DNA of 63,991 nucleotides, filler included, from Candidatus Hydrogenedentota bacterium (GCA_040752395.1; 14 parts of 14 records of this genome joined end to end with filler, not necessarily neighbours in it), one strand, 5' to 3'. Shown: positions 2,444-62,190, counted from the first letter of the whole stretch. Numbers and translations: made by a program. Notes: a model not told the origin generated them from the sequence alone.

Positions 2444-2606
2444 CTTCTCTGAAAAACGCTGTAACTCTAATAATTCGGGGTACAGGCTATGGACTACAGC
2501 CAGCTGGAGCCAGATGCACGGAGCCTGCTGAAAAGTCTTGAGTCTTGAGTCTCGAGTCCTGTTTTGACTCACGACTCTTTTCATATCATCTTTAGTTTTT
2601 CATCCT
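2444..2606 (-). repeat. Composite repeat ending in the SD-bearing terminal module, upstream of GH35
   Basis: Minus strand reads ...ATTATTAGAGTTACAGCGTTTTTCAGAGAAGAT-ATG; near-identical to 61861-62035. Confidence 0.95.
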
Positions 2607-2759
2607 NNNNNNNNNNNNNNNNNNNNNNNNNNNNNNNNNNNNNNNNNNNNTTAATTAATTAANNNNNNNNNNNNNNNNNNNNNNNNNNNNNNNNNNNNNN
2701 NNNNNNCCTCTTTCGTTATCTTTCTTTCCGTTATCTTGCCTCTTGCCTCTTGCCTCTAA

Positions 2760-4127
2760 TTATGGCGTAAATATATCCTGCGGAAGATGGATACCATTTT
2801 CAGCGAACCGCTCATAAAACGTAGGTACAATGCCTGTGGGTCTTAAATCACCAAGTATCTTTCCGTTCTCATCTTTGCCTGTCTGTTTAAACTCAAAAAT
2901 ATCAGAGAGAACCACAGTATCACCCTCCATCCCCTGAACCTCCGTTATCTTTTCAACCTTCCGTGAACCATCCTTGAATCTTGATTGCTGAATAATTAAA
3001 TCAATAGCCGAAGCTATCTGTTCTCGTATAGCTCTTACAGGGAGCTCCATACCAGCCATCAGGCACATAGTTTCAAGACGTCTTATCATATCCCGTGGTG
3101 TATTAGCGTGGCCCGTTGTCAATGAGCCATCGTGTCCCGTGTTCATAGCCTGTAACATATCCAGTGCCTCCCCACCCCTGCACTCACCAACAACCACTCT
3201 ATCCGGTCTCATACGTAAAGTGTTTTTAATAAGTTCACGCATTGAGACTGCGCCTTTGCCCTCAATATTCGGTGGTCTTGTTTCAAGTCTAACCCAGTGA
3301 GGCTGTCTTAATTGCAGTTCAGCAGCATCCTCAACTGTGATAATTCGTTCGTCCGCAGGAATAAAAGATGATAATACATTAAGTAGAGTGGTTTTGCCAG
3401 AACCTGTACCGCCAGAAACAACAATATTTAACCTGATTTTTACACAGGCATCAAGGAAATCAGCCATCTTTTTCGTCATCGCACCAAACCTGACAAGGTC
3501 ATCAATAGTTAATGGGTCTTTTTTGAATTTACGAATCGTTATGGTTGGTCCGTTTAAGGCGAGCGGCGGTATTATAGCATTGACACGCGAGCCGTCTTTT
3601 AATCTTGCATCAACATAGGGCATACTCTCATCACATCTTCTCCCAAGCGGTGAGATGATTTTTTCAATAATATGAAGAATATGTTCATTATCTTTAAATT
3701 TTACATTGGTTAAAATGAGTTTTCCTTTCTGTTCAATATAAACCATCTGAGGCCCGTTTACCATAACCTCGGAAATAGTATCATCTTTAATCAAAGGTTC
3801 GATAGGTCCAAGGCCTAATATCTCATCAATTATCTCGCCAAGCAGTTTCATATGTTCCTGTCTTGTTAACGAGATACCTTTTTCACTGCCGACTGTTATA
3901 ATGAATTCCTCAACCTGACCTGAGAGCAAACTTCTTTTTAAGTTTTCGTCTTCGTGATTAAGTAGCTCAGGATCAAGTTCAGCAACAATTTTTTCATGCA
4001 CCGCTGATTTCAATTCGACATATTTATCACCCTCTTTTTGAGCTACCTGTGCTACAATGGGCGTTTTAGCGCCAAACGCTGTTTTTGTTGCCTGCTGGGC
4101 TTGCCCCAGTCTTGACATTAAACCCAC
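2760..4127 (-). CDS. cpaF: CpaF/TadA pilus assembly ATPase
   Basis: GGTGSGKTT Walker A, EDAAELQL, LRMRPDRVVVGECRG, MNTGHDGS. Confidence 0.95.
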   Translation of the reverse strand: MGLMSRLGQAQQATKTAFGAKTPIVAQVAQKEGDKYVELKSAVHEKIVAELDPELLNHEDENLKRSLLSGQVEEFIITVGSEKGISLTRQEHMKLLGEIIDEILGLGPIEPLIKDDTISEVMVNGPQMVYIEQKGKLILTNVKFKDNEHILHIIEKIISPLGRRCDESMPYVDARLKDGSRVNAIIPPLALNGPTITIRKFKKDPLTIDDLVRFGAMTKKMADFLDACVKIRLNIVVSGGTGSGKTTLLNVLSSFIPADERIITVEDAAELQLRQPHWVRLETRPPNIEGKGAVSMRELIKNTLRMRPDRVVVGECRGGEALDMLQAMNTGHDGSLTTGHANTPRDMIRRLETMCLMAGMELPVRAIREQIASAIDLIIQQSRFKDGSRKVEKITEVQGMEGDTVVLSDIFEFKQTGKDENGKILGDLRPTGIVPTFYERFAENGIHLPQDIFTP

Positions 4128-4137
4128 ACCTAATTAC

Positions 4138-4173
4138 CTCCTCTGAAAAATGCTGTAACTCTAATAATATCAA
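4138..4173 (-). repeat. Stand-alone SD-bearing terminal module
   Basis: TTGATATTATTAGAGTTACAGCATTTTTCAGAGGAG, 10 nt before the cpaF GTG. Confidence 0.9.
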
Positions 4174-4180
4174 AATTCTG

Positions 4181-5304: not shown

Positions 5305-5546
5305 NNNNNNNNNNNNNNNNNNNNNNNNNNNNNNNNNNNNNNNNNNNNTTAATTAATTAANNNNNNNNNNNNNNNNNNNNNNNNNNNNNNNNNNNNNNNN
5401 NNNNAGCTTACTCATGCTTTTCATAGGGTATGTTCCTCCTTTTTAAGAGTTTTTATACTTAATTAAGGAAGAATATGCCCTTTTTTATTTCTTTTCAATA
5501 TTCAATTTGCACTAAACTTTATACATTATCCGTGAGAATTTTTACC

Positions 5547-5575
5547 TTGACTTTTATATGAAATGGGTGTAAAAT
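5547..5575 (+). promoter_or_regulatory. sigma70-type promoter
   Basis: TTGACT-N17-TAAAAT, followed by GGAGGAG SD before ATG 5603. Confidence 0.6.
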
Positions 5576-22464: not shown

Positions 22465-22876
22465 TTCCTCGGTTCGAAGAGTCAAAGAGTTGAGGGTTAA
22501 GAATGGGGTGGTGAACAAAGGGATGACTCGGTGGCAGCTGAAGCAAGAGGAAAGAGACGCCGCGAATTTAGAAGAAGGTGGAATTCTAGAGAAGAGAGAC
22601 GGGATAATTATGAACAATAGTAAACCACTGGTAATATAATTGCTAAGATCATAAAATCATATAATAAAAAAATCGTTTTAGATATTGGATGTCAATAGAA
22701 AAATTGTGTAAATAAAAAGAGGGATAAAGAAAGCAATAGCAAAGAGCCCGATAAAAATTACGATTTAGGGAAAAACNNNNNNNNNNNNNNNNNNNNNNNN
22801 NNNNNNNNNNNNNNNNNNNNTTAATTAATTAANNNNNNNNNNNNNNNNNNNNNNNNNNNNNNNNNNNNNNNNNNNN

Positions 22877-24062: not shown

Positions 24063-24358
24063 TATTCCCCTCAGTTTCCGGTGTTCGATGTTCGGTTCAC
24101 CGATAACCTAAAACCCAAAACCTATAACCGAATATCTTGCTTCTTGCTCTTTGTCGCTTCGCTCCATTATAAATTTAGGCTTCGAGCCACTGGCTTCAGG
24201 CTCCAGTTGAAAAGTCGGGAGCCACGAGCCCAGAATCGTAAAATCAGTCAATAAGTCGTAAGTCAAGGACTGACGACTCAAGACTCCCCAGACTGATTTC
24301 ATTTTGCAATTTCCAATTTCCAATCTTCAATTCCGAATATCCTGTATCTTGCTTCTTG
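24063..24358. repeat. Mosaic of heptad modules ending in the terminal motif that provides the eda SD
   Basis: TATTCCCCTCAGT; TTCGG/AACC module matching 59624-59690 inverted; AGTC/GACT and TTTCCAA modules. Confidence 0.85.
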
Positions 24359-25279: not shown

Positions 25280-25378
25280 CTCCTCTGAAAAACATTCTAA
25301 CTCTAATAATATCAAGTAGAAGCAAGAGGCAAGAAGCAAGAAGCAAGATAACGGAAGAAGTGAGAGGTATCAGGACGG
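25280..25378 (-). repeat. AGCAAG heptad module plus SD-bearing terminal module
   Basis: Minus strand TTGATATTATTAGAGTTAGAATGTTTTTCAGAGGAG-ATTAT-ATG. Confidence 0.9.
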
Positions 25379-26497: not shown

Positions 26498-26626
26498 CTT
26501 CTTGCTCCCACACCAATTGTTTATTAGACAGCTATTGTTTTCTGGCAATTGGTTTGTAGCGTTTGCTTCTTGCTTTTATTTGAGATTATCATAGTTACAA
26601 AATTTTTCAGGGGAGTGATTAACTAA

Positions 26627-27124
26627 CTATATCTCTTCAAAGACAATCCTTGATGCCTCAACAAAATCATTAGCATTATTCTTTATATTCTTTAAAATCT
26701 CATAATCAACTTCAATCTCAGTACCATATTGGAACTCTTCTCTTAGAGCCTTGGCATCACTACCCATCAACACGTCTGTCCTTCTAATCATTGCTATAAA
26801 TTTTGGATCAAATTTTATCTTTCCTGTCTTTATGAGAAACTCTATTGCATTAATCGTGCACTCCTGATTCTTTGAGTCATATCCTGATTTATAAAGAATA
26901 GCTAATAATGAGTGATACATTGCATAAAAAGCAGCTGAGACAGCCCAATCTCCAAACCCACCTTTTATGTTATATTCAACAGCTTCAAGATTATGTAAAG
27001 CTTTTTGTATATGATTACTTGCTTCGTTATTATCGGGTCTTATTTTTCTTAAACCCCTATGCTTTCTACCACCTTTTCTGCCTTTTTCAAGACACCATTT
27101 AAACTTTCTTTCTATAATATCCAT
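26627..27124 (-). CDS. HEPN-domain protein
   Basis: AFYAMYHSLLAIL, SKNQECT, LREEFQY; paired with MNT. Confidence 0.8.
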   Translation of the reverse strand: MDIIERKFKWCLEKGRKGGRKHRGLRKIRPDNNEASNHIQKALHNLEAVEYNIKGGFGDWAVSAAFYAMYHSLLAILYKSGYDSKNQECTINAIEFLIKTGKIKFDPKFIAMIRRTDVLMGSDAKALREEFQYGTEIEVDYEILKNIKNNANDFVEASRIVFEEI

Positions 27125-38003: not shown

Positions 38004-38193
38004 AGTCAAAACAGGACTCGAGACTCAAGACTCAAGACTTTTCAGCAGGCTTTTGGCTTTTGGCTCCAGCCGGCTGTAGTCCGTAGCCTGTAGCCTGTAG
38101 CCCGTCCTGATACTTCTCACTTCTTCCGTTATCTTGCTTCTTGCCTCTTGCTTCTACTTGATATTATTATAGTTACAATGTTTTTCGAAGGAG
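38004..38193 (+). repeat. Composite repeat supplying the clpB SD
   Basis: ...TTGATATTATTATAGTTACAATGTTTTTCGAAGGAG-AACCAAA-ATG. Confidence 0.95.
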
Positions 38194-44900: not shown

Positions 44901-47900
44901 GGAATAATATATCCTGATACTGCGAGATTCAGTACTTATGGTGGTACGGTTGTTTTATCTGCTGTGAGTCTTACGAAGGTAGGGAATATTACAATAACTG
45001 CGATTAACAATTCTGGTAGGTTCGGGACTACAACGATTCAGGTTATACCTGCGGCTGTTGACCATTTTATCTTAAGTGCTTCAGTTACAAACATTACAGC
45101 AGGTTATCCATTTATTCTAAACATTACTGCCTATGATGAGTTCAACAATCTTCAGACTTTATTTAACAACAGCGCTTATTTGACTGTTACTGCCGGAACG
45201 ATTACACCATCTATAACCGCTGCATTTACTTCAGGTACTATAACGATTACTGGTGTTACAATAGACAGAGCAGGAACACAGACAATAACCTGTTATTATG
45301 GTTCTGCCACTGGTACCACAGTAATTTATATCATTCCAGATACGCCTACATATTTTGTTCTCAAAGTATCATCCTCGGCTGTAGCTGGTGATACTTTCTC
45401 ATTAGAGATAACAGCGTGTGACAGGTTTAGGAATGTATCAACTCTTTATAACGAGACAGCGAGTATATCAACCGATACAGGTATAGGTGCATGGATCTAT
45501 CCGACTTGGACCTCGAATTTCGTTAACGGTACAACAGTGGTTTATGTTTCAATCAATCGAACCGGGACCCGAACGATTACAGTAAGAGACATCTGGGATT
45601 ATGGCACAGGCACGACATCAATCCTTATAACACCTGATTCAACATCGTATTTTGTAATAGCTATGTCTGATACAGTAAGAGCTGGTGTCCCATTCCAGAT
45701 GCAGATAACCGCTTATGATATATTTGATAATATCCAGACGAATTTCGATGATACTGTAAAAATCGAGATATCTTCTGGTACGATATACCCGAGTGTGACA
45801 GGTAATTTCAACCAGGGAGTTATTGTTGTGAACAATGTTACTGTCACAAAAATAGGTGCTGTAGTAATAACCTGTATTGATGGTTCGTCAGCTACCACAG
45901 CTACAGGGACTAAACCTGTTTACGTATTACCTGGTATATTATCTTATTTTGTAGTCACCACAGATACACCAGAGATACCTGCAGGCGAAACATTCAGCAT
46001 AACCATAACTGCTTATGATTCTATCGGTAATATAAAGACCGATTCAAATATTTATATCTCATTACTGGTTAATTTAGGTGTTATCACTCCGACTATAGCT
46101 GATACTATGTTAGACAGTGGAACTGTAACAATACAGAATGTTACTTTGACAAAGACTGGTACAGTGACTATCACAGCATATTATTACAGTGGGGTTGATA
46201 CTGTTTATGGAGCTGATACAATTCTTGTAACTCCTGGTAGCTTAAGTTACTTTATTATCTCAGTCGATACAAATAACCTGCAATTAGGCGACTCATTTAT
46301 TTTATATGTTACTGCTTATGACAGGTTTGCTAATATAAGGTTAAATAAATTTGATACGGCGATTATTACAACAGATGATCCAGCAGAGGATCAGGAAACG
46401 CCTGCATTCTTAATAATGGGTGATTCAGGTTGCACAACTACTGTCTGTTATATAGTAGCCCAACCCAATACTACAACAATAGTGATTGTACAAAATGGAG
46501 AGGCTCAAGGCACAGTACCGATTATTTTAAGTTTCGAGGGTATATATACTTTAGAGTTAAGCATACCTGATACTACCATAGAAGCAGGCACGCCATTTAC
46601 TTTAAGGGTAACAGCTGTTGACCCATTTGGTTATCCGATTGCAACTATTACAGGCGATACTTCGGCCTCGTATTTCTATTTCAGGATATTAGGTGGTGGG
46701 CCTGAAGATGTGGAGCCAGATACTTTCGCATTCCCGATAGAATTCAATGATGGTTATTATGAAACCAACATACTTATTATAACTCAGGCAGGAGTAGACA
46801 CTTTAGAAGTGAGTATACAAAGTTATGCTCCTTTTGGTGTAAAAACAGAGTATCCTTGCAAAATAGATGTAGATGTTGATCCTGCAGAACATACACGATA
46901 CGGCGTATCTATTGTTGGCGGTGATACTGAGATCACAGCAGGTGAGACATTTGCTTTACAGGTTAGTGCCTGGGATACCTGGGCTAACCTGGTCCCGATA
47001 AATGGAGGTACTGTAAGTATCTATGCTTATATAGACTTTGAAACAGTCCCAATATTAACCAATGCCTCCGGTGTTCTTAATAATGGTACCTGTGTTACGA
47101 TCGAGATATTATATCGAACAGGTACAACACAGATAATAGTCTATGATACCTTAGCTAGAACTGGTACTCTCACACCACTTATTATATTACCTGCAGAACT
47201 ACATCATTTTGTTATAGATACTCCTGTATTTCCAACAGCTGGTGTATGGTTTACACTTAAAGTTACAGCAAGAGATATCTATGAAAATCTTGTAACTTCA
47301 TATACAGGCAAAGTAGATTTTGAAGTAACAGAGATACAGTCTGGTCTTCAGTATCCTATACAACCACAACAGAGTAATCAATTTACAAATGGTGTACTGG
47401 TACAGAGCGTATCAATCACTTATGGTGGAACCGTTGTTTTAACCGTGAAAGACTCTGTTACTCCTTCGGATTCAGGAAGTATTATATTCTTTATATCTTT
47501 ATATAGTGGAGTTGAGCTAACAGGTGGTGATACGCTTTATTTATATCCTGGTGAAAGAGGATATATAACATTAATAGTGAAAAATTATGGTGAGGGTGTA
47601 GATATATTTGATCTTAGTATAGCGCAGGATTATGATTTTGCTGTGAAATTTATTCAGGATGATGACCAGGACAATAAACATGATGAAAGCGAAACCACAG
47701 AGTTACCAGCTTATACTGATTTAATATATCCGTTGGATACCTATTCATTCTTTGTCTATGTTGATGTCCCATCAACTACGCAGGTATTACTTTATAATTA
47801 TATAATAGTTGCTGCTACCTCGAGAGCAAATAACAGCAAGACAGATACAGAGCGTAGTTTAGTGATAACAGTCAGTGAGAGCATACCTGCTACTACTTTG

Positions 47901-48962
47901 GGGTTGAAAATAATAACTGAGGATTATCCTGGTGAGAACAAGATGTATATAGAGATAATATTAGCAGATGCAACGACAGGCCAGCGAGTAGCACCACATC
48001 TTGTAGAGGTCGAGTTTGTACCCTATGACGCAAGAGCGAGTGTTGAATACATACCTGATAGCTATGCATATTTAGGTAGAGCAAAAATCTGGTATCGGCC
48101 ATTACCTGAGAAGACAGTCAACGTAGGGTTAGATGGCAGGATCGGCTCATTTGGCTTCAGCAAGGCGTTCGTAAAACGTAAACATACAACATTTATTGTG
48201 CCTGACCCGGATAATTCTCAGGTACTTGTTGAAAGAGATATATTACCAACTGATACACACTTTATTACAATAGCGAGACCTGATACCGATGAACTCGCAA
48301 TAATTAATGCTGCTTATGATGTATTAAGCGGTAATTTTGCGTTAATGCCGATAGTTGTAAAGAGCCCGGATATTAACACTTATGTTCCGCATCATAAATT
48401 TTCGTTACTCGATGACCAGGGGAATATTAATGAAAAACCACAATTTATTAAACCAGTTAGAATTATAATACCATATCCGGATAATGACCATAATGGAGTG
48501 GTTGATGAGTTTGGGATACCTGAAAGTACTTTAAGGATGTATAGACTTAATCCACAGGCACAAAGATGGGAACTGGTTGAGAATCAGCAGAGAAACGCTG
48601 ACTATGATTATGTTGAAGCTGTTGTATCTGAATTTAGTTTCTATACATTACTCGGTTCAGCATCAACCAATGCTTTATCAATGTCGCGTAGTTATCCGAA
48701 CCCGTTCTATCCATTACAGCGCCAGACCATAACTATTAACACATTTACCACGATTAGTTCTTTAAGGGTTAAGATTTATAATATTGCGGGTGATTTAGTT
48801 AGAACGCTTGATGACGGTTCTGAAATAATCAGTTTAGATCCTGGAATGGCGGTCTGGGACGGCAAAAACGATAGAGGTAATTTTGTAGCAAGTGGTTTGT
48901 ATATTTTTGTGGCTGAAACGAATTTAGGCACAGCGACCGGAAAGATTACATTGATAAAGTAG
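41937..48962 (+). CDS. 2341-aa secreted Ig-like repeat protein with T9SS/FlgD-like C-terminal domain
   Basis: ~96-aa repeats with ITAYDxxGN; C-terminal YPNPF...IYNIAG...WDGKN...ASGLY. Confidence 0.85.
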   Translation: MKFMVKQVIGLCKKARWKQKIKRVLLPGTAISVFLFSILLLSSSGVYGVNDPNYTPYQSLIIHGGDTIGALFPELNVVDTFPDAIMYYGNNPKDGCGTTLIVVVPRNAPTCSPVPQLTPDSDVIVDSIYFVVLETDTFDTSAKVADTAYLIHTIYNFANTTDSFSFRIYLSDTIDYDSAGVYYDADTDGVLDTTDPLITTTSTMNQGDTMQIIIPILISPHTTLPDTCLVRIEVWSIYHSTYMKPDSDVADTSYDIVTATVGDIDSFVISSPTYNVTAGINFILYITPVDPAWNPIYGYSGDSMYSTSRDTITPDRVLNTFTQGDGYTIENVSITKTGYITITVQDGLGHYGIIGLNVEPDTIGSFLISSSSGIVTAGWGFNLSITAFDRWGNQANDTSFRDTAFFSVTTGCSITPEVTGEFRAGTVALSNVTLNRTGTITITVYYANAIGTTTLWVEPDTTQYFALSTDTSIVAIGENFNLSITAYDRFGNINWNHSDSVTLIVSKGDISPDTTAGFTSGIKTLAVSLSQSGTITITAYTNEGKYGTTSIVVAPIGVEYFIITANVNSITAGYGFSLYITAYDQYNNVNLDFEDSASLSVSTGVIVPSITDTFTSGTCAMSGVTIDKAGTQVIRVAYGVAEGTTVIYIIPDTPTYFIVSSVSEIVAGDTFNLYITAYDRFWNISTVYSDSVKLIVDTGNIVPDSAYGFTDGIKVQAVSVTKTGTRVITVTDANNYATGTTTIYVTPDSTAYFEISGPDTVLTGDTFILQITAYDRFWNIQTEFDSKILFYISDGNIYPDISGNFSSGFREESVSITKTGDSIVITCSDPITGSYDTFVIQVLPSELSYFMISSDSVVVTAGYSFRLDVTAFDRFGNVKTDYTGDAYLEVSSGTITPVMTGNFTGGTVTVYPVTLTRSGTITITVETGTIFGTMQIWVEPDTTQYFTLSTDTSIVVAGNSFVLGITAYDRFDNINWNYLDTVSILASDGIIYPDTARFSTYGGTVVLSAVSLTKVGNITITAINNSGRFGTTTIQVIPAAVDHFILSASVTNITAGYPFILNITAYDEFNNLQTLFNNSAYLTVTAGTITPSITAAFTSGTITITGVTIDRAGTQTITCYYGSATGTTVIYIIPDTPTYFVLKVSSSAVAGDTFSLEITACDRFRNVSTLYNETASISTDTGIGAWIYPTWTSNFVNGTTVVYVSINRTGTRTITVRDIWDYGTGTTSILITPDSTSYFVIAMSDTVRAGVPFQMQITAYDIFDNIQTNFDDTVKIEISSGTIYPSVTGNFNQGVIVVNNVTVTKIGAVVITCIDGSSATTATGTKPVYVLPGILSYFVVTTDTPEIPAGETFSITITAYDSIGNIKTDSNIYISLLVNLGVITPTIADTMLDSGTVTIQNVTLTKTGTVTITAYYYSGVDTVYGADTILVTPGSLSYFIISVDTNNLQLGDSFILYVTAYDRFANIRLNKFDTAIITTDDPAEDQETPAFLIMGDSGCTTTVCYIVAQPNTTTIVIVQNGEAQGTVPIILSFEGIYTLELSIPDTTIEAGTPFTLRVTAVDPFGYPIATITGDTSASYFYFRILGGGPEDVEPDTFAFPIEFNDGYYETNILIITQAGVDTLEVSIQSYAPFGVKTEYPCKIDVDVDPAEHTRYGVSIVGGDTEITAGETFALQVSAWDTWANLVPINGGTVSIYAYIDFETVPILTNASGVLNNGTCVTIEILYRTGTTQIIVYDTLARTGTLTPLIILPAELHHFVIDTPVFPTAGVWFTLKVTARDIYENLVTSYTGKVDFEVTEIQSGLQYPIQPQQSNQFTNGVLVQSVSITYGGTVVLTVKDSVTPSDSGSIIFFISLYSGVELTGGDTLYLYPGERGYITLIVKNYGEGVDIFDLSIAQDYDFAVKFIQDDDQDNKHDESETTELPAYTDLIYPLDTYSFFVYVDVPSTTQVLLYNYIIVAATSRANNSKTDTERSLVITVSESIPATTLGLKIITEDYPGENKMYIEIILADATTGQRVAPHLVEVEFVPYDARASVEYIPDSYAYLGRAKIWYRPLPEKTVNVGLDGRIGSFGFSKAFVKRKHTTFIVPDPDNSQVLVERDILPTDTHFITIARPDTDELAIINAAYDVLSGNFALMPIVVKSPDINTYVPHHKFSLLDDQGNINEKPQFIKPVRIIIPYPDNDHNGVVDEFGIPESTLRMYRLNPQAQRWELVENQQRNADYDYVEAVVSEFSFYTLLGSASTNALSMSRSYPNPFYPLQRQTITINTFTTISSLRVKIYNIAGDLVRTLDDGSEIISLDPGMAVWDGKNDRGNFVASGLYIFVAETNLGTATGKITLIK

Positions 48963-50584: not shown

Positions 50585-53500
50585 ATGGTATTCGTTTTTT
50601 CTATGGTAAAGAGGTTTATATTAGCAACTCTACTTATATATTTTTTTATTTTATCCCAGGCTTCTTATGGTGATACATATATTTTTGTAAGAAAATGGGG
50701 TAGCTCAGGTACCGGGGATGGACAATTTGATAGACCGAGCGGCATCGGCATGGATAAATACGGCCATGTGTATATATCAGAGTACAGTAACTCTCATCGT
50801 TGTCAGAAATTTACAAAGAATGGTAATTTTATATTAAAATGGGGGAGTTTAGGTGCTGGTAACGGCCAGTTTAATTATGCCAGTGGTGTGGTCGTGGATT
50901 CAGCAGGCTATATTCATGTAGTAGATAGAGTTAATGAACGTGTTCAAAAATTTACGCAAGATGGCAGCTTTGTTACTATATGGGGTAGTGGAAATCTGGA
51001 TCTTCTGTTTGATCACTATGCAGGTATTGCAATAGATTCTTCTTCTAATATTTATGTTTGCAGGACAGATGGGAGTAGTATAAGTAGCGTGAGAAAATTT
51101 AATTCAAGTGGTGGTTATATCTTAGATATTGGCAGCAGGGGTACTGCATTTGGTAAATTTCAAGATCCTCATGGTGTAGCAGTTGATGATACAGGTTATG
51201 TTTATGTTTCAGACCGAAAAAGTGGTGGTAGTATCAGATTACAGAAATTTACAGTCGGAGGTTCCACGATTATGGCAATTGATACTGGTGGACTTAATGA
51301 TCCTACGGGTGTTGCGGTAGATAAATATGGTTATGTATATGTTTGTGATAAAGATAACCACCGCATTAAGAAATATGATTCTAATGGTAATATTATAACA
51401 GTTTGGGGTAGTAATGGTGCGGCTGATGGCCAGTTCTCTTCTCCTGAAGGCATCTTTGTGGATTCTTTTGGGTTTGTATATGTTTGCGATGGTGGGAATA
51501 GCAGGATACAGGTCTTTGCATTAACTGATGCTGATAGTATCCCCTGCTCAGCACCAGGCAGCGTTATAGTTTCCAACCCTGGTTATGGGGGACAATTAAA
51601 TTTATCCTGGTCCAACCCACCCCAACCAGATTTTTCCTATGTAATGATTTATCGCTCTACCGCTTCATTATCTCTCGGCTCACTTATTTATTCTAATGTA
51701 ACAGAAACGTCAAAAATAGATACAGGACTTACAAATGGTGAGACATATTATTATACTTTCTTTGCTGTTGATACCAATGGTAACTGGTCAATTGATACTA
51801 CGCAATATAGTGGGACCCCCTATGATACTATAACACCAACCGAAGTCACATTATTAACACCGGCTGACGGAACCCCAACCTCAACAGTTAGACCTGTGTT
51901 CACTTATACTAATTCGTTAGATTCGTCAAACATTGAGTACATTTTAGAGATAGATGATACATATAGTTTTAGTTCGATTAACTATACAGGTACATCATTG
52001 ACATTAAGTTGTAGTCCGAGCGTAGATATACTAAACGGCACATATTACTGGCGAGTAAGAGTAAAGGATATTTATAATAATTCAAATCAAGGTATAGATT
52101 CACGAATGATAGTAATAGATACCGCGGCTCCAAATGAGGTAAGTTTAATTTCGCCGGTCGATGGTACGTGTACGAATGTAGTAAAGCCAGTGTTTTATTA
52201 TACTGCATCAGGTGATACGAGCGGTATAAAGTGGTATATATTAGAGATAGATGACACGAGTACTTTCAGTTCAATAAACTACAGTGGTACGTCAGTGAGT
52301 ACGAGTTGCAGTCCGAGTGCGGATATGGTAAATGGTACGTATTATTGGCGAGTGCGGGTGCTGGATATTCTTGATCAATCGAATGCTGGTATAGATACGA
52401 ATGTAATAGTGATAGACACAGCTGGCCCGAATGAGGTGAGTTTAATAAGTCCGGCAGATGGTAGTAGTACGAATGTAGTAAGACCAGTGTTTTATTATAC
52501 TGCATCAGGTGATACATCGGGCATAAAATGGTATATATTAGAAATAGATGATACTTATTCTTTTACTTCGATAAACTATAGTGGGACATCTACCACTACA
52601 AGTTGTTCGCCAACTGCTGATATGGCAGACAATACATATTACTGGCGAGTGCGGGTGCTGGATATTCTTGATCAATCGAATGTTGGGATAGATACAAGGG
52701 TTATAAGGATAGTAGCTGAGACAGTACCGCCTACTGAGGTAAGTTTAATTTCACCGGTTGATGGAGCATGTACGAATGTAGTACAGCCGGTATTTTGGTA
52801 TAGTGCATCGAGTGATAGTTCAGGTATAAAGTGGTATATTTTAGAGATAGACGACACGAGTAGTTTCAGTTCAATAAACTACAGTGGTACGTCAGTGAGT
52901 ACGAGTTGCAGTCCGAGTGCGGAGATGGTAAATGGTACGTATTATTGGCGTGTGCGGGTGATAGACGTATGGGATATATCGAATACCGGGATAGATAGCA
53001 GGGTAATAGTGATAGACACAGCTGGCCCGAATGAGGTGAGTTTAATAAGTCCGGCAGATGGTAGTAGTACGAATGTAGTAAAGCCAGTGTTTTATTATAC
53101 TGCATCAGGTGATACGAGTGGCATAAAGTGGTATATCTTAGAGATAGATGACACGAGTAGTTTTGCTTCGATAAACTACAGTGGTACATCAGTGAGTACG
53201 AGTTGCAGTCCGAGTGCGGATATGGTAAATGGTACGTATTACTGGCGAGTGCGGGTGCTGGATATACTTGATCAATCGAATGCTGGTATAGATACGAGAG
53301 TAATAATAATAGATACTTATATCTCTGTTAGTTTAGTTTCACCAGAGGACACATATTATACGAATGACACCACGCCGAGGTTTGTATGGTCAGGTAGCAG
53401 TGTAGATACCTATACGTTAGAGGTAGATAATGATATAAGTTTCACATCAATTAATTATACGGTTACGACTGGTGATACAGAGGCGAGTGCTGATGTATTA

Positions 53501-56500
53501 GGAGAGGACACATATTACTGGCGTGTGATAGGTTTTGATAAAGGTGGGAACTGGGAGACGACAGTAGCGAGGGTGATAGTGATAGATACTGGGTTACCGG
53601 CAGAGGTTAGTCTTATAGCGCCTGAAAATAATACAGAGACAAACGAACAGAGGCCGAGGCTTGTATGGGGTAGTTCGAGTGATAGTCGTAGTGGTGTATG
53701 GTATTATCAGATAGAGCTTGATAATAGCAGTAATTTTTTATCGATAGAGTATAGTGATACGAGTGATTCTTGTGAGTGGGAGAGTGATGTAGATATAGCT
53801 GGTGATACATATTACTGGCGGGTGAGGGTATATGATGTAGCTGGTAATAGTAATAGTGGGATAGATAGCAGGGTAATAAAGATAGTTGCGGACACGTTAG
53901 CGCCTGATGAAGTAAGTTTAATAAGTCCGGCAGATGGCAGTAGTACGAATGTAGTACAGCCGGTATTTTGGTATAGTGCATCGAGTGATAGTTCAGGTAT
54001 AAAGTGGTATATTTTAGAGATAGATGACACGAGTAGTTTTGCTTCGATAAACTACAGTGGTACGTCAGTGAGTACGAGTTGCAGTCCGAGTGCGGAGATG
54101 GTAAATGGTACGTATTATTGGCGTGTGCGGGTGATAGACGTATGGGATATATCGAATACCGGGATAGATAGCAGGGTAATAGTGATAGACACAGCTGGCC
54201 CGAATGAGGTGAGTTTAATAAGTCCGGCAGATGGTAGTAGTACGAATGTAGTAAAGCCAGTGTTTTATTATACTGCATCAGGTGATACGAGTGGCATAAA
54301 GTGGTATATCTTAGAGATAGATGACACGAGTAGTTTTGCTTCGATAAACTACAGTGGTACATCAGTGAGTACGAGTTGCAGTCCGAGTGCGGATATGGTA
54401 AATGGTACGTATTACTGGCGAGTGCGGGTGCTGGATATACTTGATCAATCGAATGCTGGTATAGATACGAGAGTAATAATAATAGATACTTATATCTCTG
54501 TTAGTTTAGTTTCACCAGAGGACACATATTATACGAATGACACCACGCCGAGGTTTGTATGGTCAGGTAGCAGTGTAGATACCTATACGTTAGAGGTAGA
54601 TAATGATATAAGTTTCACATCAATTAATTATACGGTTACGACTGGTGATACAGAGGCGAGTGCTGATGTATTAGGAGAGGACACATATTACTGGCGTGTG
54701 ATAGGTTTTGATAAAGGTGGGAACTGGGAGACGACAGTAGCGAGGGTGATAGTGATAGATACTGGGTTACCGGCAGAGGTTAGTCTTATAGCGCCTGAAA
54801 ATAATACAGAGACAAACGAACAGAGGCCGAGGCTTGTATGGGGTAGTTCGAGTGATAGTCGTAGTGGTGTATGGTATTATCAGATAGAGCTTGATAATAG
54901 CAGTAATTTTTTATCGATAGAGTATAGTGATACGAGTGATTCTTGTGAGTGGGAGAGTGATGTAGATATAGCTGGTGATACATATTACTGGCGGGTGAGG
55001 GTATATGATGTAGCTGGTAATAGTAATAGTGGGATAGATAGCAGGGTAATAAAGATAGTTGCGGACACGTTAGCGCCTGATGAAGTAAGTTTAATAAGTC
55101 CGGCAGATGGCAGTAGTACGAATGTAGTACAGCCGGTATTTTGGTATAGTGCATCGAGTGATAGTTCAGGTATAAAGTGGTATATTTTAGAGATAGATGA
55201 CACGAGTAGTTTTGCTTCAATAAACTACAGTGGTACATCAGTGAGTACGAGTTGCAGTCCGAGTGCGGAGATGGTAAATGGTACGTATTATTGGCGTGTG
55301 CGGGTGTTAGATATCTGGGACCAGTCCAATCTCGGGTTGGATTCGAATGTATTAATAATAGATACAGTGCCACCTGTTGTTTATCTGAATTCTATTGTGA
55401 TAAACAATGATGCATTGGTTACTAATGCTGAAACAGTGACTTTAAGTTTGCTATATGATAACAGTTCTATAGAGATGCAGATTTCTGATACTGAGACGTT
55501 TGCAGGAGCGAGCTTTGAGCCGGTTAGTTTGACTGATACTTATGTCTTGACCTCAATTGAGGGAACAAAGGCGCTGTGGGTAAGGTTTAAAGATGCTGCA
55601 GGCAATATCTCAAATTCGGATTCTGATACAATTGTGCTTGATAAAACTCCACCCGCTGGTTCGGTTATATTAGACAATGGTGCAGCGATTACAACGAGCC
55701 AGGTGGTAATAGCATCTATAACAGTAACAGAGACATACCAGATGATAGTTTCAACAGACGGTGTCTTTGATAATGAAGAGTGGGAATCAAAATCAGATAC
55801 TAAAGTTATTAATTATGGTGATACAGACGGAGTGAAATGGGTTTATGTAAGGTTCAGGGATTTAGCAGGGAATGCGAGTGACACGTGTTCGGATAGTATA
55901 ACTCTTGCCGTGCCGCCATTACCCGTTGTTAATCTTTCAGGTACGTTACTTGATGGGGCAAAGGTTAGACTTGATTGGTTAAAATCAGCGTCAAATGATG
56001 TTGTAAAATATTATATCTATTCTGATAGCACACAAGGAATAATAAATTGGAGTATACCTATTGATACAGTATCTGCACCAACAGTAACCTGGACAAGTGA
56101 TACGCTGTTAGCTGATACGTATTATCTATTAGGGGTACGAGCTGTAGATAATAATGGATATACTGATGAAGAATATAATGCAGTAAGAGTAATGCCGAGA
56201 ACATCAATAGATACTAATAAACCACAAACAGCTATAAAAAAGGCAAAAGTATATAGTGGTATATATGCGAATATTATAGCAGAGGTTGTTGTAAGTTCTG
56301 TTAATAATATCAGCAAAGTATTATTTCAGTACAGCGTGGATACAGGTGCTACGTGGGTGGATATGCTGCAATATAATGCTACTAATTATCCTAATCCTGT
56401 TTTTAATTGTTTTGATCTGGCAAAATACAATACTTTATGGGATATAAGTGGTTTGGCTCAGGGAGAATATCTTATCCGTGCAGTGGCTTATAATTTAAAT

Positions 56501-57385
56501 AATGTTCCTGATACATACGCACCTGGTATCTGGGTAGAGATAGGTGGCGACAATAGTTCGAGTAATCCACGGGATTGGCCTGATGAGATGGGTGATACTA
56601 CAACAGAGGGTATAAGGTCAAGGGTTAAATGTTATACTACTATAAGTAATACCTTAGAGTTAGCAGTTCCGAATCGTCAGAGCTCAATTGACCAGTTAAA
56701 CATAGCAAATGGACTTCTGAATAATGAGATAGACCAGCTCGAGATAATATTTGTAGATTCGTCGTATTATGATACCTGGATTAGAGCAGCTCAGTTTGTG
56801 TATGCTAATGAAATAAGAAAAATAGAGTTACGCAGTGGCCAGACACAATTTACTGCGGGTAATGTAGAATTTAATATTTCTTATCAGGATCAAGATCTGG
56901 ATGGTATTGTAGATGGAACGACTTTAAGAGAGGATGATTTAAAAATTTATCGGCTAAGTAATACTGATAGCAAATGGTATGAGATATCAAGTCAGGTAGA
57001 TAAAACTAATAAACGAGTGAATGGGTTAACAAGTCAGTTTAGTGTGTTTGCAGTTGGTGCTATACCTGTAGCGAGTAATCTTGCTAATGTTATAGTATAT
57101 CCGAATCCATTCAGGCCGAATGATGGGAACTGGCAGACAGGGGTTGATTATAATGGTTCTGCGGGCAGCGGGATATATATAACAAACCTTATGGCAAGTA
57201 CTGAGGTTGAGGTTTATAATGTATCGGGCCAGAAAGTCTACGATTTTGTTACCTCTGCGAATACCGGAACAGTGCAGTGGGATGCAAAGGATAAGAACGG
57301 TCGGTATCTGCCAAGCGGTGTGTATATAATGTTATTAAAGAAAGGCGGAGATAGAAAGATAGTTAAGTTTGCGATAATTAGATGA
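50585..57385 (+). CDS. 2266-aa secreted protein: NHL propeller, FN3-like repeats, T9SS/FlgD-like C-terminal domain
   Basis: GQFxxPxGIAVD repeats; GTYYWRVR repeats; YPNPF...WDAKD...PSGVY. Confidence 0.85.
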   Translation: MVFVFSMVKRFILATLLIYFFILSQASYGDTYIFVRKWGSSGTGDGQFDRPSGIGMDKYGHVYISEYSNSHRCQKFTKNGNFILKWGSLGAGNGQFNYASGVVVDSAGYIHVVDRVNERVQKFTQDGSFVTIWGSGNLDLLFDHYAGIAIDSSSNIYVCRTDGSSISSVRKFNSSGGYILDIGSRGTAFGKFQDPHGVAVDDTGYVYVSDRKSGGSIRLQKFTVGGSTIMAIDTGGLNDPTGVAVDKYGYVYVCDKDNHRIKKYDSNGNIITVWGSNGAADGQFSSPEGIFVDSFGFVYVCDGGNSRIQVFALTDADSIPCSAPGSVIVSNPGYGGQLNLSWSNPPQPDFSYVMIYRSTASLSLGSLIYSNVTETSKIDTGLTNGETYYYTFFAVDTNGNWSIDTTQYSGTPYDTITPTEVTLLTPADGTPTSTVRPVFTYTNSLDSSNIEYILEIDDTYSFSSINYTGTSLTLSCSPSVDILNGTYYWRVRVKDIYNNSNQGIDSRMIVIDTAAPNEVSLISPVDGTCTNVVKPVFYYTASGDTSGIKWYILEIDDTSTFSSINYSGTSVSTSCSPSADMVNGTYYWRVRVLDILDQSNAGIDTNVIVIDTAGPNEVSLISPADGSSTNVVRPVFYYTASGDTSGIKWYILEIDDTYSFTSINYSGTSTTTSCSPTADMADNTYYWRVRVLDILDQSNVGIDTRVIRIVAETVPPTEVSLISPVDGACTNVVQPVFWYSASSDSSGIKWYILEIDDTSSFSSINYSGTSVSTSCSPSAEMVNGTYYWRVRVIDVWDISNTGIDSRVIVIDTAGPNEVSLISPADGSSTNVVKPVFYYTASGDTSGIKWYILEIDDTSSFASINYSGTSVSTSCSPSADMVNGTYYWRVRVLDILDQSNAGIDTRVIIIDTYISVSLVSPEDTYYTNDTTPRFVWSGSSVDTYTLEVDNDISFTSINYTVTTGDTEASADVLGEDTYYWRVIGFDKGGNWETTVARVIVIDTGLPAEVSLIAPENNTETNEQRPRLVWGSSSDSRSGVWYYQIELDNSSNFLSIEYSDTSDSCEWESDVDIAGDTYYWRVRVYDVAGNSNSGIDSRVIKIVADTLAPDEVSLISPADGSSTNVVQPVFWYSASSDSSGIKWYILEIDDTSSFASINYSGTSVSTSCSPSAEMVNGTYYWRVRVIDVWDISNTGIDSRVIVIDTAGPNEVSLISPADGSSTNVVKPVFYYTASGDTSGIKWYILEIDDTSSFASINYSGTSVSTSCSPSADMVNGTYYWRVRVLDILDQSNAGIDTRVIIIDTYISVSLVSPEDTYYTNDTTPRFVWSGSSVDTYTLEVDNDISFTSINYTVTTGDTEASADVLGEDTYYWRVIGFDKGGNWETTVARVIVIDTGLPAEVSLIAPENNTETNEQRPRLVWGSSSDSRSGVWYYQIELDNSSNFLSIEYSDTSDSCEWESDVDIAGDTYYWRVRVYDVAGNSNSGIDSRVIKIVADTLAPDEVSLISPADGSSTNVVQPVFWYSASSDSSGIKWYILEIDDTSSFASINYSGTSVSTSCSPSAEMVNGTYYWRVRVLDIWDQSNLGLDSNVLIIDTVPPVVYLNSIVINNDALVTNAETVTLSLLYDNSSIEMQISDTETFAGASFEPVSLTDTYVLTSIEGTKALWVRFKDAAGNISNSDSDTIVLDKTPPAGSVILDNGAAITTSQVVIASITVTETYQMIVSTDGVFDNEEWESKSDTKVINYGDTDGVKWVYVRFRDLAGNASDTCSDSITLAVPPLPVVNLSGTLLDGAKVRLDWLKSASNDVVKYYIYSDSTQGIINWSIPIDTVSAPTVTWTSDTLLADTYYLLGVRAVDNNGYTDEEYNAVRVMPRTSIDTNKPQTAIKKAKVYSGIYANIIAEVVVSSVNNISKVLFQYSVDTGATWVDMLQYNATNYPNPVFNCFDLAKYNTLWDISGLAQGEYLIRAVAYNLNNVPDTYAPGIWVEIGGDNSSSNPRDWPDEMGDTTTEGIRSRVKCYTTISNTLELAVPNRQSSIDQLNIANGLLNNEIDQLEIIFVDSSYYDTWIRAAQFVYANEIRKIELRSGQTQFTAGNVEFNISYQDQDLDGIVDGTTLREDDLKIYRLSNTDSKWYEISSQVDKTNKRVNGLTSQFSVFAVGAIPVASNLANVIVYPNPFRPNDGNWQTGVDYNGSAGSGIYITNLMASTEVEVYNVSGQKVYDFVTSANTGTVQWDAKDKNGRYLPSGVYIMLLKKGGDRKIVKFAIIR
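52771..55306 (+). repeat. Near-perfect 1173-bp intragenic tandem duplication (about 2.2 copies)
   Basis: Anchors at 53311/54484 and 52771/53944 are both 1173 apart. Confidence 0.9.
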
Positions 57386-57654: not shown

Positions 57655-57854
57655 ATTTATTGGATGAATTGAGACAACAGATGGTATTATCTTTACCAAT
57701 GAAATTTTTATGCAGAGATGATTGCCTGGGATTATGTCCCGTATGCGGTGAAAATAGAAATATCAGACATTGCGGACATAAGCTAAAATCATATAATACA
57801 CTCGCAACCCAACTCGAGGATATCAAAGATAAGATTGAAAGATTGAAAGATTAA
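57655..57854 (+). CDS. yceD: YceD/DUF177 protein, 3' part
   Basis: LSLPMKFLCRDDCLGLCPVCGENRN; upstream of rpmF. Confidence 0.85.
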
Positions 57855-58198
57855 AAGATACGGCGAGAAAGTGTATATTTTCGCTTTCTTTACTTTTAAC
57901 TTTTGACTTTTTACTTTTAACTTGTCATAGGAGTTAGAAGTTAGGAGTTCGTAATAATAGATCCGAGCTCCGAGCTTTGAACTCCGAACTTTTTCGAAGG
58001 AGTACTCATGAGCGCGTTTGCGCTCTACACAAAGGATGAAAAACTAAAGATGATATGTTGGCTTCAGGCTCCGGGCTTCGGGCTCCAGTCGGCTGTAGTC
58101 CGTAGCCTGTAGCCTGTCCTGATACCTCTCACTTCTTCCGTTATCTTGCTTCTTGCTTCTACTTGATATCATTAGAGTTACAATATTTTTCAGAGGAG
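57836..58198 (+). repeat. Mosaic repeat between yceD and rpmF
   Basis: GAAAGATT, TTTTAAC, GGAGTT/GAACTCC, GGCT and CTTGCTT modules plus terminal SD module. Confidence 0.9.
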
Positions 58199-58485: not shown

Positions 58486-58628
58486 TTGAAAGATTGAAAG
58501 ATTAAAAGATACGGCAAGGAAGTGTATATTTTCGCTTTCTTTACTTTTAACTTGTCATAGGAGTTAGAGGTTAGGAGTTCGTAATAATAAATCCGAGCTC
58601 CGAGCTCCGAACTTTTTCAGAGGAGTAC
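58486..58628 (+). repeat. Direct repeat of 57836-58005 supplying the plsX SD
   Basis: Ends TTTTTCAGAGGAGTAC-T-ATG. Confidence 0.9.
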
Positions 58629-58629
58629 T

Positions 58630-59830: not shown

Positions 59831-59871
59831 ATTTCTTTTCCGATTTATTCGGGTCAGGACGGTATTAGAAA

Positions 59872-59904
59872 ATGAATTGTGGAATTTTGGCTGTAGGTGC
59901 TTAT
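59872..59904 (+). CDS. fabH: Start of FabH (11 codons before the gap)
   Basis: MNCGILAVGAY downstream of plsX. Confidence 0.6.
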
Positions 59905-60004
59905 NNNNNNNNNNNNNNNNNNNNNNNNNNNNNNNNNNNNNNNNNNNNTTAATTAATTAANNNNNNNNNNNNNNNNNNNNNNNNNNNNNNNNNNNNNNNN
60001 NNNN

Positions 60005-61851
60005 TTTTTAGCCTGCTCGAACCACTGGTTAAATATCTCATTTTGTTTTTTTTCAAAGAGGTCATTATAGAGTTCGGCCCGGAATCTCTCAAATTCCTCT
60101 TCGTCAAAAGGTTTACGTTTTATAAGTTGAAATATATGGTAACCGTTCTGAGCGTTAATCGTGTCACTTATTTCATCAGTAGTTAGGTATAAAATTTTTT
60201 GTTGGATTGAGGGGTCGAGGAAGTACAAAGTTCTACCACGTGATATATATGAATAACCTATCTCCTTTTGGAGGATCTCTATTGTTTCTGTATCATAGTC
60301 AGAATAATTTCTTTCTGAGATTAAGCCTGTTCTAAAGTATGGCAAGTCACCGCCAATGCTTGCTGTTTTTCCGTGAGAGAATTCTTTAGCGAGCTCTCCA
60401 AAATCCTGGCTTTCTTCTTTTAGCAGTTTATAAAGCCTATTAATCTCATTTTTTGCAAATTCGACCTCGGTATCGTTTACTAAAATGGTTCTTATTCTTT
60501 CCTCAACATCAGAAAATGGGAGTAGTCTTTCCTCTTTTTTATCTTTAAGTTTTATCAGATGAAACCCGAGTGTTGATCTAACCGGGTCACTGATCTCGCC
60601 GACCTTTAATTTAAATGCCTCATCTAATACCGGGTTTTCTGAAAGCTTTGGTCTTATTAAAATATGTCTTGCTCTTCTTCGGTCGCCATCGATTGCTTCG
60701 AGTTTAATGATATGGAATCCAAACCTTGTTTCAACTATATTTGATAGTTCACCGATGCTTTTAAGTTTATACAACGCTTTTTCAAAAGATTCATCCATTT
60801 CCCCAGGACTAATCCATGAGAGGTCACCCCCTCGCACACGTGATGGACAATCTGAATATTTTTTAGCAAGCATCTCAAAATTAGCACCTTCTTTTAATAG
60901 CTTAAGTAATTCTTCTGATTTTTTATAAGCAGTATCAATATCGTCATCCGTTAGAGGTATGTTGAATGGGTTATCGTTTTTTGTAAAAAATTGATATATT
61001 AAACCGCTATCCTCTTTTGCTGTGCTTCTATCCTGCGAGTATTTATAACAAGCCTCATCGTAAGTAATTAATCCGGCCTTTATCTCAGCAAGAATATTTA
61101 AACAGGAGTCCTGGATCTCATCAATCTGAGCATCGGTGGCTTCTTGAGGCAAGCCCAATAATAGATGTTGGATCTGGACGCTTTCGAGTTCTGTATATTT
61201 ATCAAGATTTTCTTCGTATTCTTTTTTAGCAAGATTAATGGGGACGTAATAAGAAGGCTTTATTAAGATATGCCTTGTCTTTATCATGCCTGATATCTGC
61301 AGATAATATGTTTTAAGTTCCTTTTCTGTTATCACGATACCGCTTGTAAGATACGATATAATTTTATCTCTTAAGATACTACGTTTTGTTGATTCTTCAA
61401 GGACACGTAATTGTCTTGAATAACTGCCATCACGTACAACCCTGTTATATGTTGCAGCATCAAAAACGCCATCTTTGTAAAAAGTGGGGTGTCTGCGTAT
61501 CTCATTTACTATTTCTTTATCAGAGACAGTGATGTTTAAGTCCGAAGCCGCGTCAATTAATAATATTTCTTTAGTAAAATCATCAATAGTCTTTTTATAT
61601 GCCTCTTTTTTTAGTTCGTCATCTGTAGCGTAACGTCTATTTTTTTTCAATTCTTCCTGGTTGTTACCGAGAAGCCGTTGAAAATTTTCAATTGGTATCT
61701 CTTCACCGTTTATCTTAAGAGCATAATTTATTCTACCGGACATCCCGGTAATATTCATCCCCCAATCGAAAAATATCAAAGCAACAAATGTAAAAACCGT
61801 TATAAGAAGAATAATCTTCATCTTTTCACGCATCCATTGAAAACTCATCAT
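60005..61851 (-). CDS. SurA/PpiD-like parvulin peptidyl-prolyl isomerase (partial)
   Basis: N-terminal TM; RHILIK, AKKYSDCPS..RGGDL, TRFGFHIIK. Confidence 0.9.
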
Positions 61852-61860
61852 AATTAAATA

Positions 61861-62190
61861 CTCCTCTGAAAAACGCTGTAACTCTAATAATTCGGGGTAC
61901 AGGCTACGGGCTACGGACTACAGCCGGCTGGAGTTAAAAGCCCGGAGCCTGCTGAAAAGTCTTGAGTCTTGAGTCTTGAGTCTCGAGTCCTGTTTTGACT
62001 CACGACTCTTTTTATATCATCTTTAGTTTTTCATACTTTGTGTAGAGCGCAAAAACCCAAGAACGCAATAACCCAAGAACCCAATAGTGTAGAGCGCAAC
62101 CCGCGCTCATGAGTACTCCTTCGAAAAAGTTCGGAGTTCGGAGTTCGGAGCTATTATTACGAACTCCTAACTTCTAACTCCTAACTCCTA
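61861..62190 (-). repeat. Mosaic repeat supplying the PPIase SD
   Basis: Similar to 57930-58198 inverted, with extra and missing modules. Confidence 0.95.

Follow-up and report, generated by a model that had tools for sequence, protein, structure and literature searches.

Here we analyze a 63,991-nt stretch of DNA (the window) from the fragmented metagenome-assembled genome (MAG) of an uncultured, deep-branching bacterium, Candidatus Hydrogenedentota bacterium (GCA_040752395.1), and within it a short repeat module that stands directly before the start codons of unrelated genes. The window is made of 14 unlinked contigs with N spacers between them and is not one stretch of chromosome; across the N runs (2607-2706, 5305-5404, 22777-22876 and ten more) coordinates do not express physical linkage. 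The module, which we call T, is 31 nt long and reads ATTATTAKAGTTACA-NNG-TTTTTCAGAGGAG, with ATTATTAGAGTTACA as its 15-mer core. The core matches the window 20 times at up to three mismatches (7.2 expected; none of 100 shuffles reaches 20). There are eight true T modules, all of which run on as NNG-TTTTTCAGAGGAG; six of them end 2-11 nt before start codons and two are orphans (Table 1).

An earlier note on this DNA had proposed that the repeat terminus is the ribosome-binding site of many unrelated genes. The six gene-adjacent copies that it named (before the genes for GH35, CpaF, a UDP-GlcA decarboxylase, ClpB, L32 and a peptidyl-prolyl isomerase (PPIase), whose identities are confirmed by Pfam) are all where it placed them. 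The shorter sequence that it saw before plsX is there too, and both orphan copies are real. This observation is confirmed, and it was understated: T, with about 355-386 copies in a genome of 2.84 Mb, is the constant 3' end of a family of intergenic repeats that are mosaic in build, polar and rich in hairpins.

T before start codons across the genome

The host genome comprises 349 contigs with a G+C content of 34.8% and is 93.8% complete. A census with a regular expression, allowing up to three mismatches per half module, gives 386 copies of T, and a separate search with the 31-mer at up to three mismatches gives 179 forward and 184 reverse matches, against none for the reversed pattern. About 13 copies represent the same locus on two overlapping contig ends, and there are 355 distinct 20-nt downstream flanks. 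When the distance is counted from GGAG, the end of the module, to a start codon that opens an open reading frame (ORF) of at least 50 amino acids, 251 of the 386 copies lie 4-12 nt from a start, 14 lie at 0-3 nt and 34 at 13-35 nt. The 87 copies with no start behind them are followed by another repeat module, a contig end, a tRNA, a short ORF, or unique DNA that often holds a canonical promoter. The start codons behind T are ATG (249), TTG (28) and GTG (22); both the spacer and the start codon vary and are not part of the repeat. The spacing (4-12 nt, mode 5-8) resembles that of GGAG Shine-Dalgarno (SD) sequences before genes that lack T (4-12 nt, mode 7-8).

Genes were taken from a crude ORF-based caller (2522 genes) that is prone to false ORFs in repeats, and counts involving neighbouring genes were redone with genes of at least 120 or at least 150 amino acids. 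In the crude set, 248 genes have T within 40 nt upstream, and 21 copies of T fall inside called genes. With its last bases T appears to provide the putative ribosome-binding site for about a tenth of the genes, essential genes included.

Conservation within T is 85-100% except at four of the 31 positions (numbered 0-30): the K at 7, the dinucleotide at 15-16 and position 2 (87%). GGAG, at 94-98% per position, is conserved as well as the remainder of the module. Right behind it conservation collapses: G follows in 46% of copies, and the positions after that are unconserved. Because the copies were picked by a regular expression, conservation inside the module is partly circular, while the sharp 3' edge is not. 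A second SD sequence further downstream is found in 11 copies only.

The genes behind T are functionally unrelated. They are also unshifted on the second principal component of codon usage, the axis on which EF-Tu is most extreme (176 T genes among 1482, p = 0.53), which does not support a bias of T toward highly expressed genes. Unrelated functions and unshifted codon usage fit an opportunistic spread better than a signal for high expression or for a regulon.

Table 1. T modules and associated repeat features in the window
Feature	Position	Strand	Gene behind and its start	Gap (nt)	Remarks
T module	2444-2474	-	GH35, ATG 2441	2	degenerate tail CAGAGAAG
T module	4138-4168	-	T2SSE/CpaF-like ATPase, GTG 4127	10	
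T module	25280-25310	-	NAD epimerase/dehydratase (UDP-GlcA decarboxylase-like), ATG 25274	5	
Orphan T	26585-26615	+			tail CAGGGGAG; faces 3' end of minus-strand HEPN gene 26627-27124
Orphan T	30756-30786	+			closes repeat chain near contig start; then only small minus-strand ORFs
T module	38163-38193	+	clpB, ATG 38201	7	tail CGAAGGAG
Repeat chain yceD-rpmF	57852-58167	+			paired heptamer arrays and hairpins, then pyrimidine-rich CTTGCTT array
T module	58168-58198	+	rpmF (L32), ATG 58210	11	
T 3' half alone, TTTTTCAGAGGAG	58613-58625	+	plsX, ATG 58630	4	joined to CTCCGAA-heptamer hairpin arm
T module	61861-61891	-	SurA-N/PPIC-type PPIase, ATG 61851	9	

Special repeat ends that the earlier note saw before eda (24061) and before the gene for a 2266-aa product (50585) are present as ACTGAGGG-type ends, but genome-wide this motif is linked to starts only weakly (8 of 42 copies within 15 nt of a start). 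The 2266-aa ORF (50585-57385) contains internal tandem repeats of about 1.17 kb within 51937-55365, of which two blocks (52632-54138 and 53805-55311) share 97% identity. Another giant ORF, at 41937-48962, encodes 2341 aa. The 2.4-kb contig at 30591-32988, which holds the second orphan, has no ORF of at least 100 aa, only minus-strand ORFs of 69-97 aa, and no Rfam match. A search of the whole window, on both strands, against Rfam 15 at the gathering score gives no match either.

Anatomy, polarity and placement of the repeat chains

T closes chains of repeat modules. Words of 14 nt with at least five copies make up 10.4% of the genome and 28.5% of its non-coding DNA, and they belong mostly to the T-ending family. 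In the 125 spacers between co-directional genes that contain T, such words cover a median of 89% of the length from the upstream stop codon to GGAG, and in 28 of them the stop codon of the upstream gene is itself borne by the repeat. T is joined to the modules upstream through TTGAT (232 copies) or CCCGA (106 copies). Its internal variants are linked to this upstream type (G/GC accompanies CCCGA in 66 of 106 copies; T/AT, C-G/AT and others are found with TTGAT), which suggests that larger units are copied together. A chain may contain up to three T modules, of which the last alone adjoins the gene. The internal copies, with the next module directly behind them, and the orphans retain GGAG, and the composites of T with the modules C and B1 are repeated themselves.

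The modules upstream of T are mostly arrays of heptamers (CTTGCTT, GTAGCCN, CTTTTAA, AGGAGTT/CTCCGAA and GAGTCGT/GACTCAA), and complementary arrays are predicted to pair into long imperfect hairpins. Chains also contain a small conserved hairpin, GAGCGC-N3-5-GCGCTC. In the window, the chain between yceD and rpmF is a good example: it takes in the stop codon of yceD, and the 396 nt upstream of rpmF have a predicted minimum free energy of -124.6 kcal/mol (z = -5.0, 100 shuffles). The 59-nt spacer before the CpaF-like ATPase gene holds almost nothing besides T. Genome-wide, the sense RNA of chains folds better than the antisense in 79 of 98 cases, by a mean of 7.9 kcal/mol, in copies that are not independent of one another; the sense folds also use more G-U pairs (1178 of 7822, against 667 of 7120 for the antisense).

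Three further features of the chains may be mentioned. First, the heptamers GTAGCCN, CTTTTAA and GTGAGTC hold a stop codon (e.g., window 57830-58160), so that three units in succession close all three frames. Second, behind internal T-like tails (e.g., window 58003-58045) we find GGAG-N5-ATG followed by the hairpin GAGCGC-N3-5-GCGCTC-TACAC. In many chains genome-wide, such modules yield mini-ORFs of 10-27 codons with a perfect SD sequence; since their frame varies with insertions and deletions in the loop, a conserved peptide is unlikely. Third, there is a second terminal module that bears GGAG, AATTTGCAAT(n)GGAGCRAAGCGACA (host contig C281:12220-12375; the rpsJ-rplC spacer of contig C333; window about 24090-24130, minus strand). 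It ends 3 nt before the start codons of rplC and other genes, and about 6 nt before the 5' end of the tmRNA (spacer AGAAAG).

The chains are strongly polar. In co-directional spacers T is found 148 times in sense and five times in antisense orientation, and other modules behave likewise (sense:antisense, module C 42:1, H 78:4, B2 112:11, further ones 70:3 and 27:1). The CTTGCTT array is the exception (98:45). Spacing and orientation of T to start codons, on which the earlier note had staked its case, thus show a clear genome-wide preference. T precedes 82 of 490 co-directional starts and eight of 128 divergent ones (Fisher p = 0.0018; counted for gaps of 60 nt or more whose two flanking genes have 150 aa or more).

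Chains also lie inside gene clusters of the atp, S10 and yceD-rpmF-plsX type, which are conserved, co-transcribed operons in most bacteria. In the atp cluster, a 244-nt chain ending in T separates atpB from atpE, and a 111-nt chain with a T-like tail separates atpG from atpD. A 330-nt chain that closes in the other GGAG-bearing module lies between rpsJ and rplC, and a 470-nt chain with three T modules lies between rplV and rpsC. A chain with two T modules stands between tRNA-Thr and tuf. The window itself shows the order yceD, chain with T, rpmF, chain, plsX. The groES-groEL spacer is native. Within the atp cluster, between atpH and atpA, we also note a PIN-domain gene with a small upstream partner (C344:3903-4551), which is probably a toxin-antitoxin pair.

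Most of the small contigs start or stop in the T-ending repeat, and genome-wide 295 of 698 contig termini are repeat-masked. Many copies of T lie near contig ends because the assembly breaks in the T-ending family. The family thus accounts for the poor assembly of this lineage, and start-codon and operon calls there need care.

Transcribed leader, promoter or insertion

In our judgment, T-ending chains are probably transcribed together with the adjoining genes, as leaders or as intercistronic cassettes, and T at their end is a translation-initiation region that is portable. Chains would lie in transcribed DNA, either between co-directional cistrons or between a canonical sigma-70-type promoter and a gene, and be read in the sense direction. 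Past the structured part, T would offer about 27 unstructured, A/U-rich bases and then GGAG(G), and this GGAG would act as the SD sequence of the next gene at native spacing. The family would spread by copying, with a variable 5' end and with a 3' junction that forms on a pre-existing GGAG, either an SD sequence or the 5' end of a tRNA, so that a new copy leaves the downstream gene translatable. The claim of the earlier note that core genes depend on the module is borne out as far as sequence alone can tell, as there is no other SD sequence before tuf, rpsC, atpE, rpmF and clpB. Its further suggestion, that the element does no harm when it inserts between genes, is an inference. Anatomy, counts, polarity and junctions are direct observations, whereas we infer the transcription through the chains, the SD function and the mode of spread. 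No 16S rRNA gene, and hence no anti-SD sequence, was found in the assembly.

Several observations weigh against this interpretation. T contains a -10-like hexamer, TAKAGT, and 66 of the 82 co-directional spacers with T have no match to a canonical promoter. The 5' half of T, TTGATATTATTAAAATTACA, stands 2-3 nt upstream of the 5' end of two tRNA-Pro genes, and ATTAAAATTACA stands before a third (contigs C5, C304 and C97), a layout that fits a promoter core with its start site just past TTACA. The stretch from rpmF to plsX has five terminator-like sites (hairpin plus T-run), against 0.7 expected, and if the hairpins of the chains do terminate transcription, the genes behind T would need a promoter inside the chain. 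Behind GGAG, G is more frequent in T (46%) than in native GGAG SD sequences (25%), so the context of the junction is not simply native. The family shows no consistent duplication of GGAG at the 5' boundary of chains (30 of 125, against 15% at random), and no mobilizing enzyme was found in the searches described below, which makes any copying mechanism a conjecture. The copies are related to one another, so the statistics overstate their independence. Finally, joins across chains may be mis-assembled or chimeric. The start of rpsC, together with its T, is assembled behind two contexts, once after rplV (C333:1-218) and once after an unrelated gene (C107:1938-2000), and at least one of these joins must therefore be an assembly artefact or a variant.

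The first four of these points would suit a cassette of promoter and leader. Here TTGAT-ATTAT-TAKAGT-TACA would be a promoter core without a -35 element, GTTTTTCAGAGGAG would form a uniform short 5' untranslated region, the hairpins upstream of T, with their T-runs, would be terminators, and each chain would insulate the next gene. The position of full T at the very 5' ends of tRNA-Ser and tRNA-Tyr, which have no use for an SD sequence, would also suit a promoter. The 5' half of T at tRNA-Pro genes may serve as a promoter core or a processing site, or it may be where the first half of the module came from. However, the genome uses canonical promoters. TTGACA (up to one mismatch)-N16-18-TAnnnT occurs in 61 of 120 divergent spacers without T, against 24 expected, and canonical promoters precede the genes for RNase P RNA, SRP RNA, tmRNA and many tRNAs. 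A promoter scan makes no call within T itself, which has no -35 element at 16-18 nt although the -10-like hexamer is present. Of 24 divergent spacers with chains that were inspected visually, most have a canonical-looking promoter ahead of the entire chain, and the tmRNA promoter lies upstream of a chain of about 130 nt that abuts the tmRNA 5' end. Moreover, T is depleted about three-fold at divergent starts, where a promoter is obligatory; a chain can hold up to three T modules with only the last beside a gene; and full T is restricted to tRNAs that begin with GGAG, to which a pure promoter would be indifferent. The divergent depletion, the promoters upstream of chains, the silence of the scan in T and the better folding of the sense strand together favour chains that are transcribed from upstream. 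A promoter role for T seems less likely to us than a transcribed leader or intercistronic element, and we regard the promoter-plus-leader cassette as unlikely.

The junctions bear on a second alternative, a pure insertion element that targets SD sequences. Its unit would end in ...TTTTTCAGA and integrate directly 5' of a chromosomal GGAG, and the SD sequence would be native and not element-borne. At tRNA-Ser(tga) (C28:149-267) and tRNA-Tyr (C175:3078-3189), the GGAG of the module coincides with the first four bases of the tRNA itself, and the overlap goes no further. Full T stands at two of the four tRNAs that begin with GGAG and at none of the 38 others (Fisher p = 0.007). The native-like spacing from GGAG to the start, the lack of anything conserved behind GGAG and the scarcity of second SD sequences also agree with targeting. 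Against it, GGAG is as conserved as the rest of the module, all internal and orphan copies keep it, the repeated composites with C and B1 include it, and the excess of G behind it is not expected of a native SD sequence. The lack of a candidate enzyme also counts here. Y1 transposase (Y1_Tnp, PF01797) has no match in the genome, a negative that the 93.8% completeness of the MAG weakens, whereas the same search found it in six of 14 control genomes. RVT_1 (reverse transcriptase) and the TnpB zinc-ribbon family have no match in the same MAG, and no small GIY-YIG nuclease was found in it, the single GIY-YIG match lying in a 617-aa UvrC-like ORF. No multi-copy transposase-like protein family was found in the genome either (the largest family has five members of about 127 aa), but the MAG is incomplete and genes for mobilizing enzymes often fail to assemble. 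We think a pure targeting insertion rather improbable.

The earlier note had left it that the element either targets SD sequences or carries one. Carrying agrees with the conservation through GGAG, its presence in internal and orphan copies and the 11 second SD sequences; random harmless landing upstream of native SD sequences would have left many more of the latter. Targeting stands in part, through the two tRNAs and the native spacing. Carrying and targeting are therefore not alternatives, since the unit closes with GGAG and the junction falls on a GGAG that was already there. The 5' ends of chains are heterogeneous, with differing first modules and a boundary inside, at or past the upstream stop codon, and together with the inconsistent duplication of GGAG this describes a family that is anchored at its 3' end and variable at its 5' end. 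Such a family could spread by microhomology-anchored template switching, by gene conversion or by a site-specific enzyme.

A third alternative is a regulon signal held by selection, in which T would be bound by a common trans-acting regulator, be it an RNA-binding protein, S1, a CsrA-like factor or an antisense RNA. The extreme uniformity of the 31 nt and their fixed position at the start of translation would agree with it, and such a role has been proposed for TAACTGA repeats just before start codons (PMC4679880). Yet the upstream modules, 60-400 nt long, are equally repeated at 90-100% identity and the variants of T are linked to them, which argues for copying and not for convergence. The orphans point toward the ends of genes or toward canonical promoters, and the genes behind T share neither function nor a shift in codon usage. 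A selected regulon as the origin of T is thus quite improbable, although regulatory use of T could have been added secondarily. An artefact of assembly or contamination (adapter-like or chimeric sequence), which the contig termini in repeats, the loci duplicated on overlapping contig ends and the two contexts of rpsC might suggest, can be practically dismissed given the 355 distinct flanks, the many copies internal to long contigs with unique sequence on either side, the variation of the copies into subfamilies and their precise relation to start codons and tRNA ends.

It is tempting to go further than a portable translation-initiation region. The chain might be a self-propagating stop-to-start cassette whose terminal GGAG pairs with a target SD sequence, or with any GGAG, and rebuilds the ribosome-binding site. 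At no less than one in ten gene starts, it might by now form a genome-wide post-transcriptional layer, in which, through a shared 31-nt leader behind processing or stabilizing hairpins, one and the same factor, whether an RNA-binding protein, S1 or an antisense RNA, could adjust or stop the translation of hundreds of otherwise unrelated genes, those for ATP synthase, EF-Tu and ribosomal proteins among them. We offer this as a speculation with a small chance of being right.

If the reading of T chains as transcribed cassettes is true, a genome-filling repeat family has become part of the translation of its downstream genes, and the genome is an extreme example of how a repeat, selfish or neutral, can be woven into gene expression. 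At least some 250 unrelated genes, among them tuf, rpsC, atpE, rpmF and clpB, would share an identical translation-initiation region, a natural experiment on how far such regions can be standardized. It would also show how repeats can enter operons without polar damage, and the GGAG junction would raise the question of an undescribed mechanism of integration or template switching.

Relatives and comparison with known repeats

Among the sequences compared, no relative usable for setting filled against empty sites was found. In the nearest 40 genomes, all of which merely share the domain, the 31-mer is found in none at up to three mismatches, and the closest relatives of the ClpB protein are at most 62% identical in genome contigs and at most 65% in metagenome contigs. 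The exact T pattern has no match in metagenome contigs and, among genome contigs of other organisms, occurs in a single 2.2-kb contig of another MAG bin (G041:C128). That contig has one full chain with T, which is 88-100% identical to copies of the host genome over its first 140 nt. As no further copy occurs in that genome of 2.9 Mb, the contig probably belongs to the organism studied here and was mis-binned. A literature search with the module strings returned no paper except one irrelevant match to a primer.

Among the closest parallels are repeats that bring ribosome-binding sites to unrelated ORFs, as described for Neisseria REP2 and Borrelia IR-A/IR-B in a review (Delihas 2011, PMC3184786). 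Like REP2 as presented there, the T-ending repeat lies directly upstream of unrelated ORFs, supplies a putative ribosome-binding site and has its stem-loops toward the 5' side. REP2 is given there as a single unit of 120-150 bp with 23-26 copies, which is said to carry a promoter and the ATG (PMC3184786). T differs from this account in its roughly 355-386 copies, its mosaic, variable 5' part and the lack of a contributed start codon, and a promoter role for it is doubtful. It also differs from what is given for REP2 in that its chains lie inside operon-type clusters and its junction falls on a pre-existing GGAG.

A similar position is taken by the direct repeats of the heptamer TAACTGA in marine Beggiatoaceae, some Cyanobacteria and Bacteroidetes (MacGregor 2015, PMC4679880). 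These repeats share with the T family the heptamer period, the orientation toward unrelated start codons and an end a few nucleotides before them, ribosomal-protein operons included. They likewise have no known mobilizing mechanism, and a translational role is proposed (PMC4679880). They show little SD character (132 of 170 sets are without a ribosome-binding site; PMC4679880), whereas the terminus of T is a strong canonical SD sequence. In place of one heptamer, the T family has many different ones in paired hairpin arrays, followed by a 31-nt end that is not heptameric. Tandem TAACTGA sets are absent from our genome, where AACTGAGGR occurs as 42 singletons, eight of them near a start.

The MIRUs of mycobacteria (Supply 1997) are, according to the review, tandem units of 40-100 bp in about 40-50 copies, with small ORFs that overlap the stop and start codons of their neighbours (PMC3184786). 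Like MIRUs so described, which keep the flanking cistrons expressed, T chains are intercistronic in polycistron-type clusters and have one orientation. Unlike them, T chains are mosaics of different modules and are not based on ORFs; they supply the upstream stop in a minority of spacers only (28 of 125), and their 3' end is an SD sequence and never a start codon.

Neither REP/BIME nor pneumococcal BOX elements are known to end, as a rule, in the SD sequence of the next gene. In other respects they resemble T chains as modular hairpin mosaics that are extragenic, lie between co-directional or convergent genes and, in their case, are co-transcribed with their neighbours (PMC3184786). REP elements are short palindromic units that are found either way round, often as inverted pairs, and that rely on a RAYT transposase, whereas T has a polarity above 95% and no Y1 transposase was found in its genome. 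A MITE is a unit of defined length between terminal inverted repeats and target-site duplications; the chains, in contrast, have heterogeneous 5' ends, lack an inverted counterpart of T there and show no consistent duplication of GGAG.

Lastly, putative mobile promoters are highly similar upstream regions before non-homologous genes, of unexplained spread, found in a survey of positions -150 to -50 (Nijveen, Matus-Garcia, and van Passel 2012, PMC3575422). These occur mostly in pairs, and the SD region lies outside the survey (PMC3575422); the shared part of T reaches the SD sequence, has hundreds of copies and is probably not a promoter. From its sequence features, the T family thus seems to stand apart from each of the systems compared in combining hundreds of copies, a mosaic of paired heptamers, a 31-nt, A/U-rich terminus with an SD sequence and without a start codon, a polarity above 95% and fusions to tRNA 5' ends.

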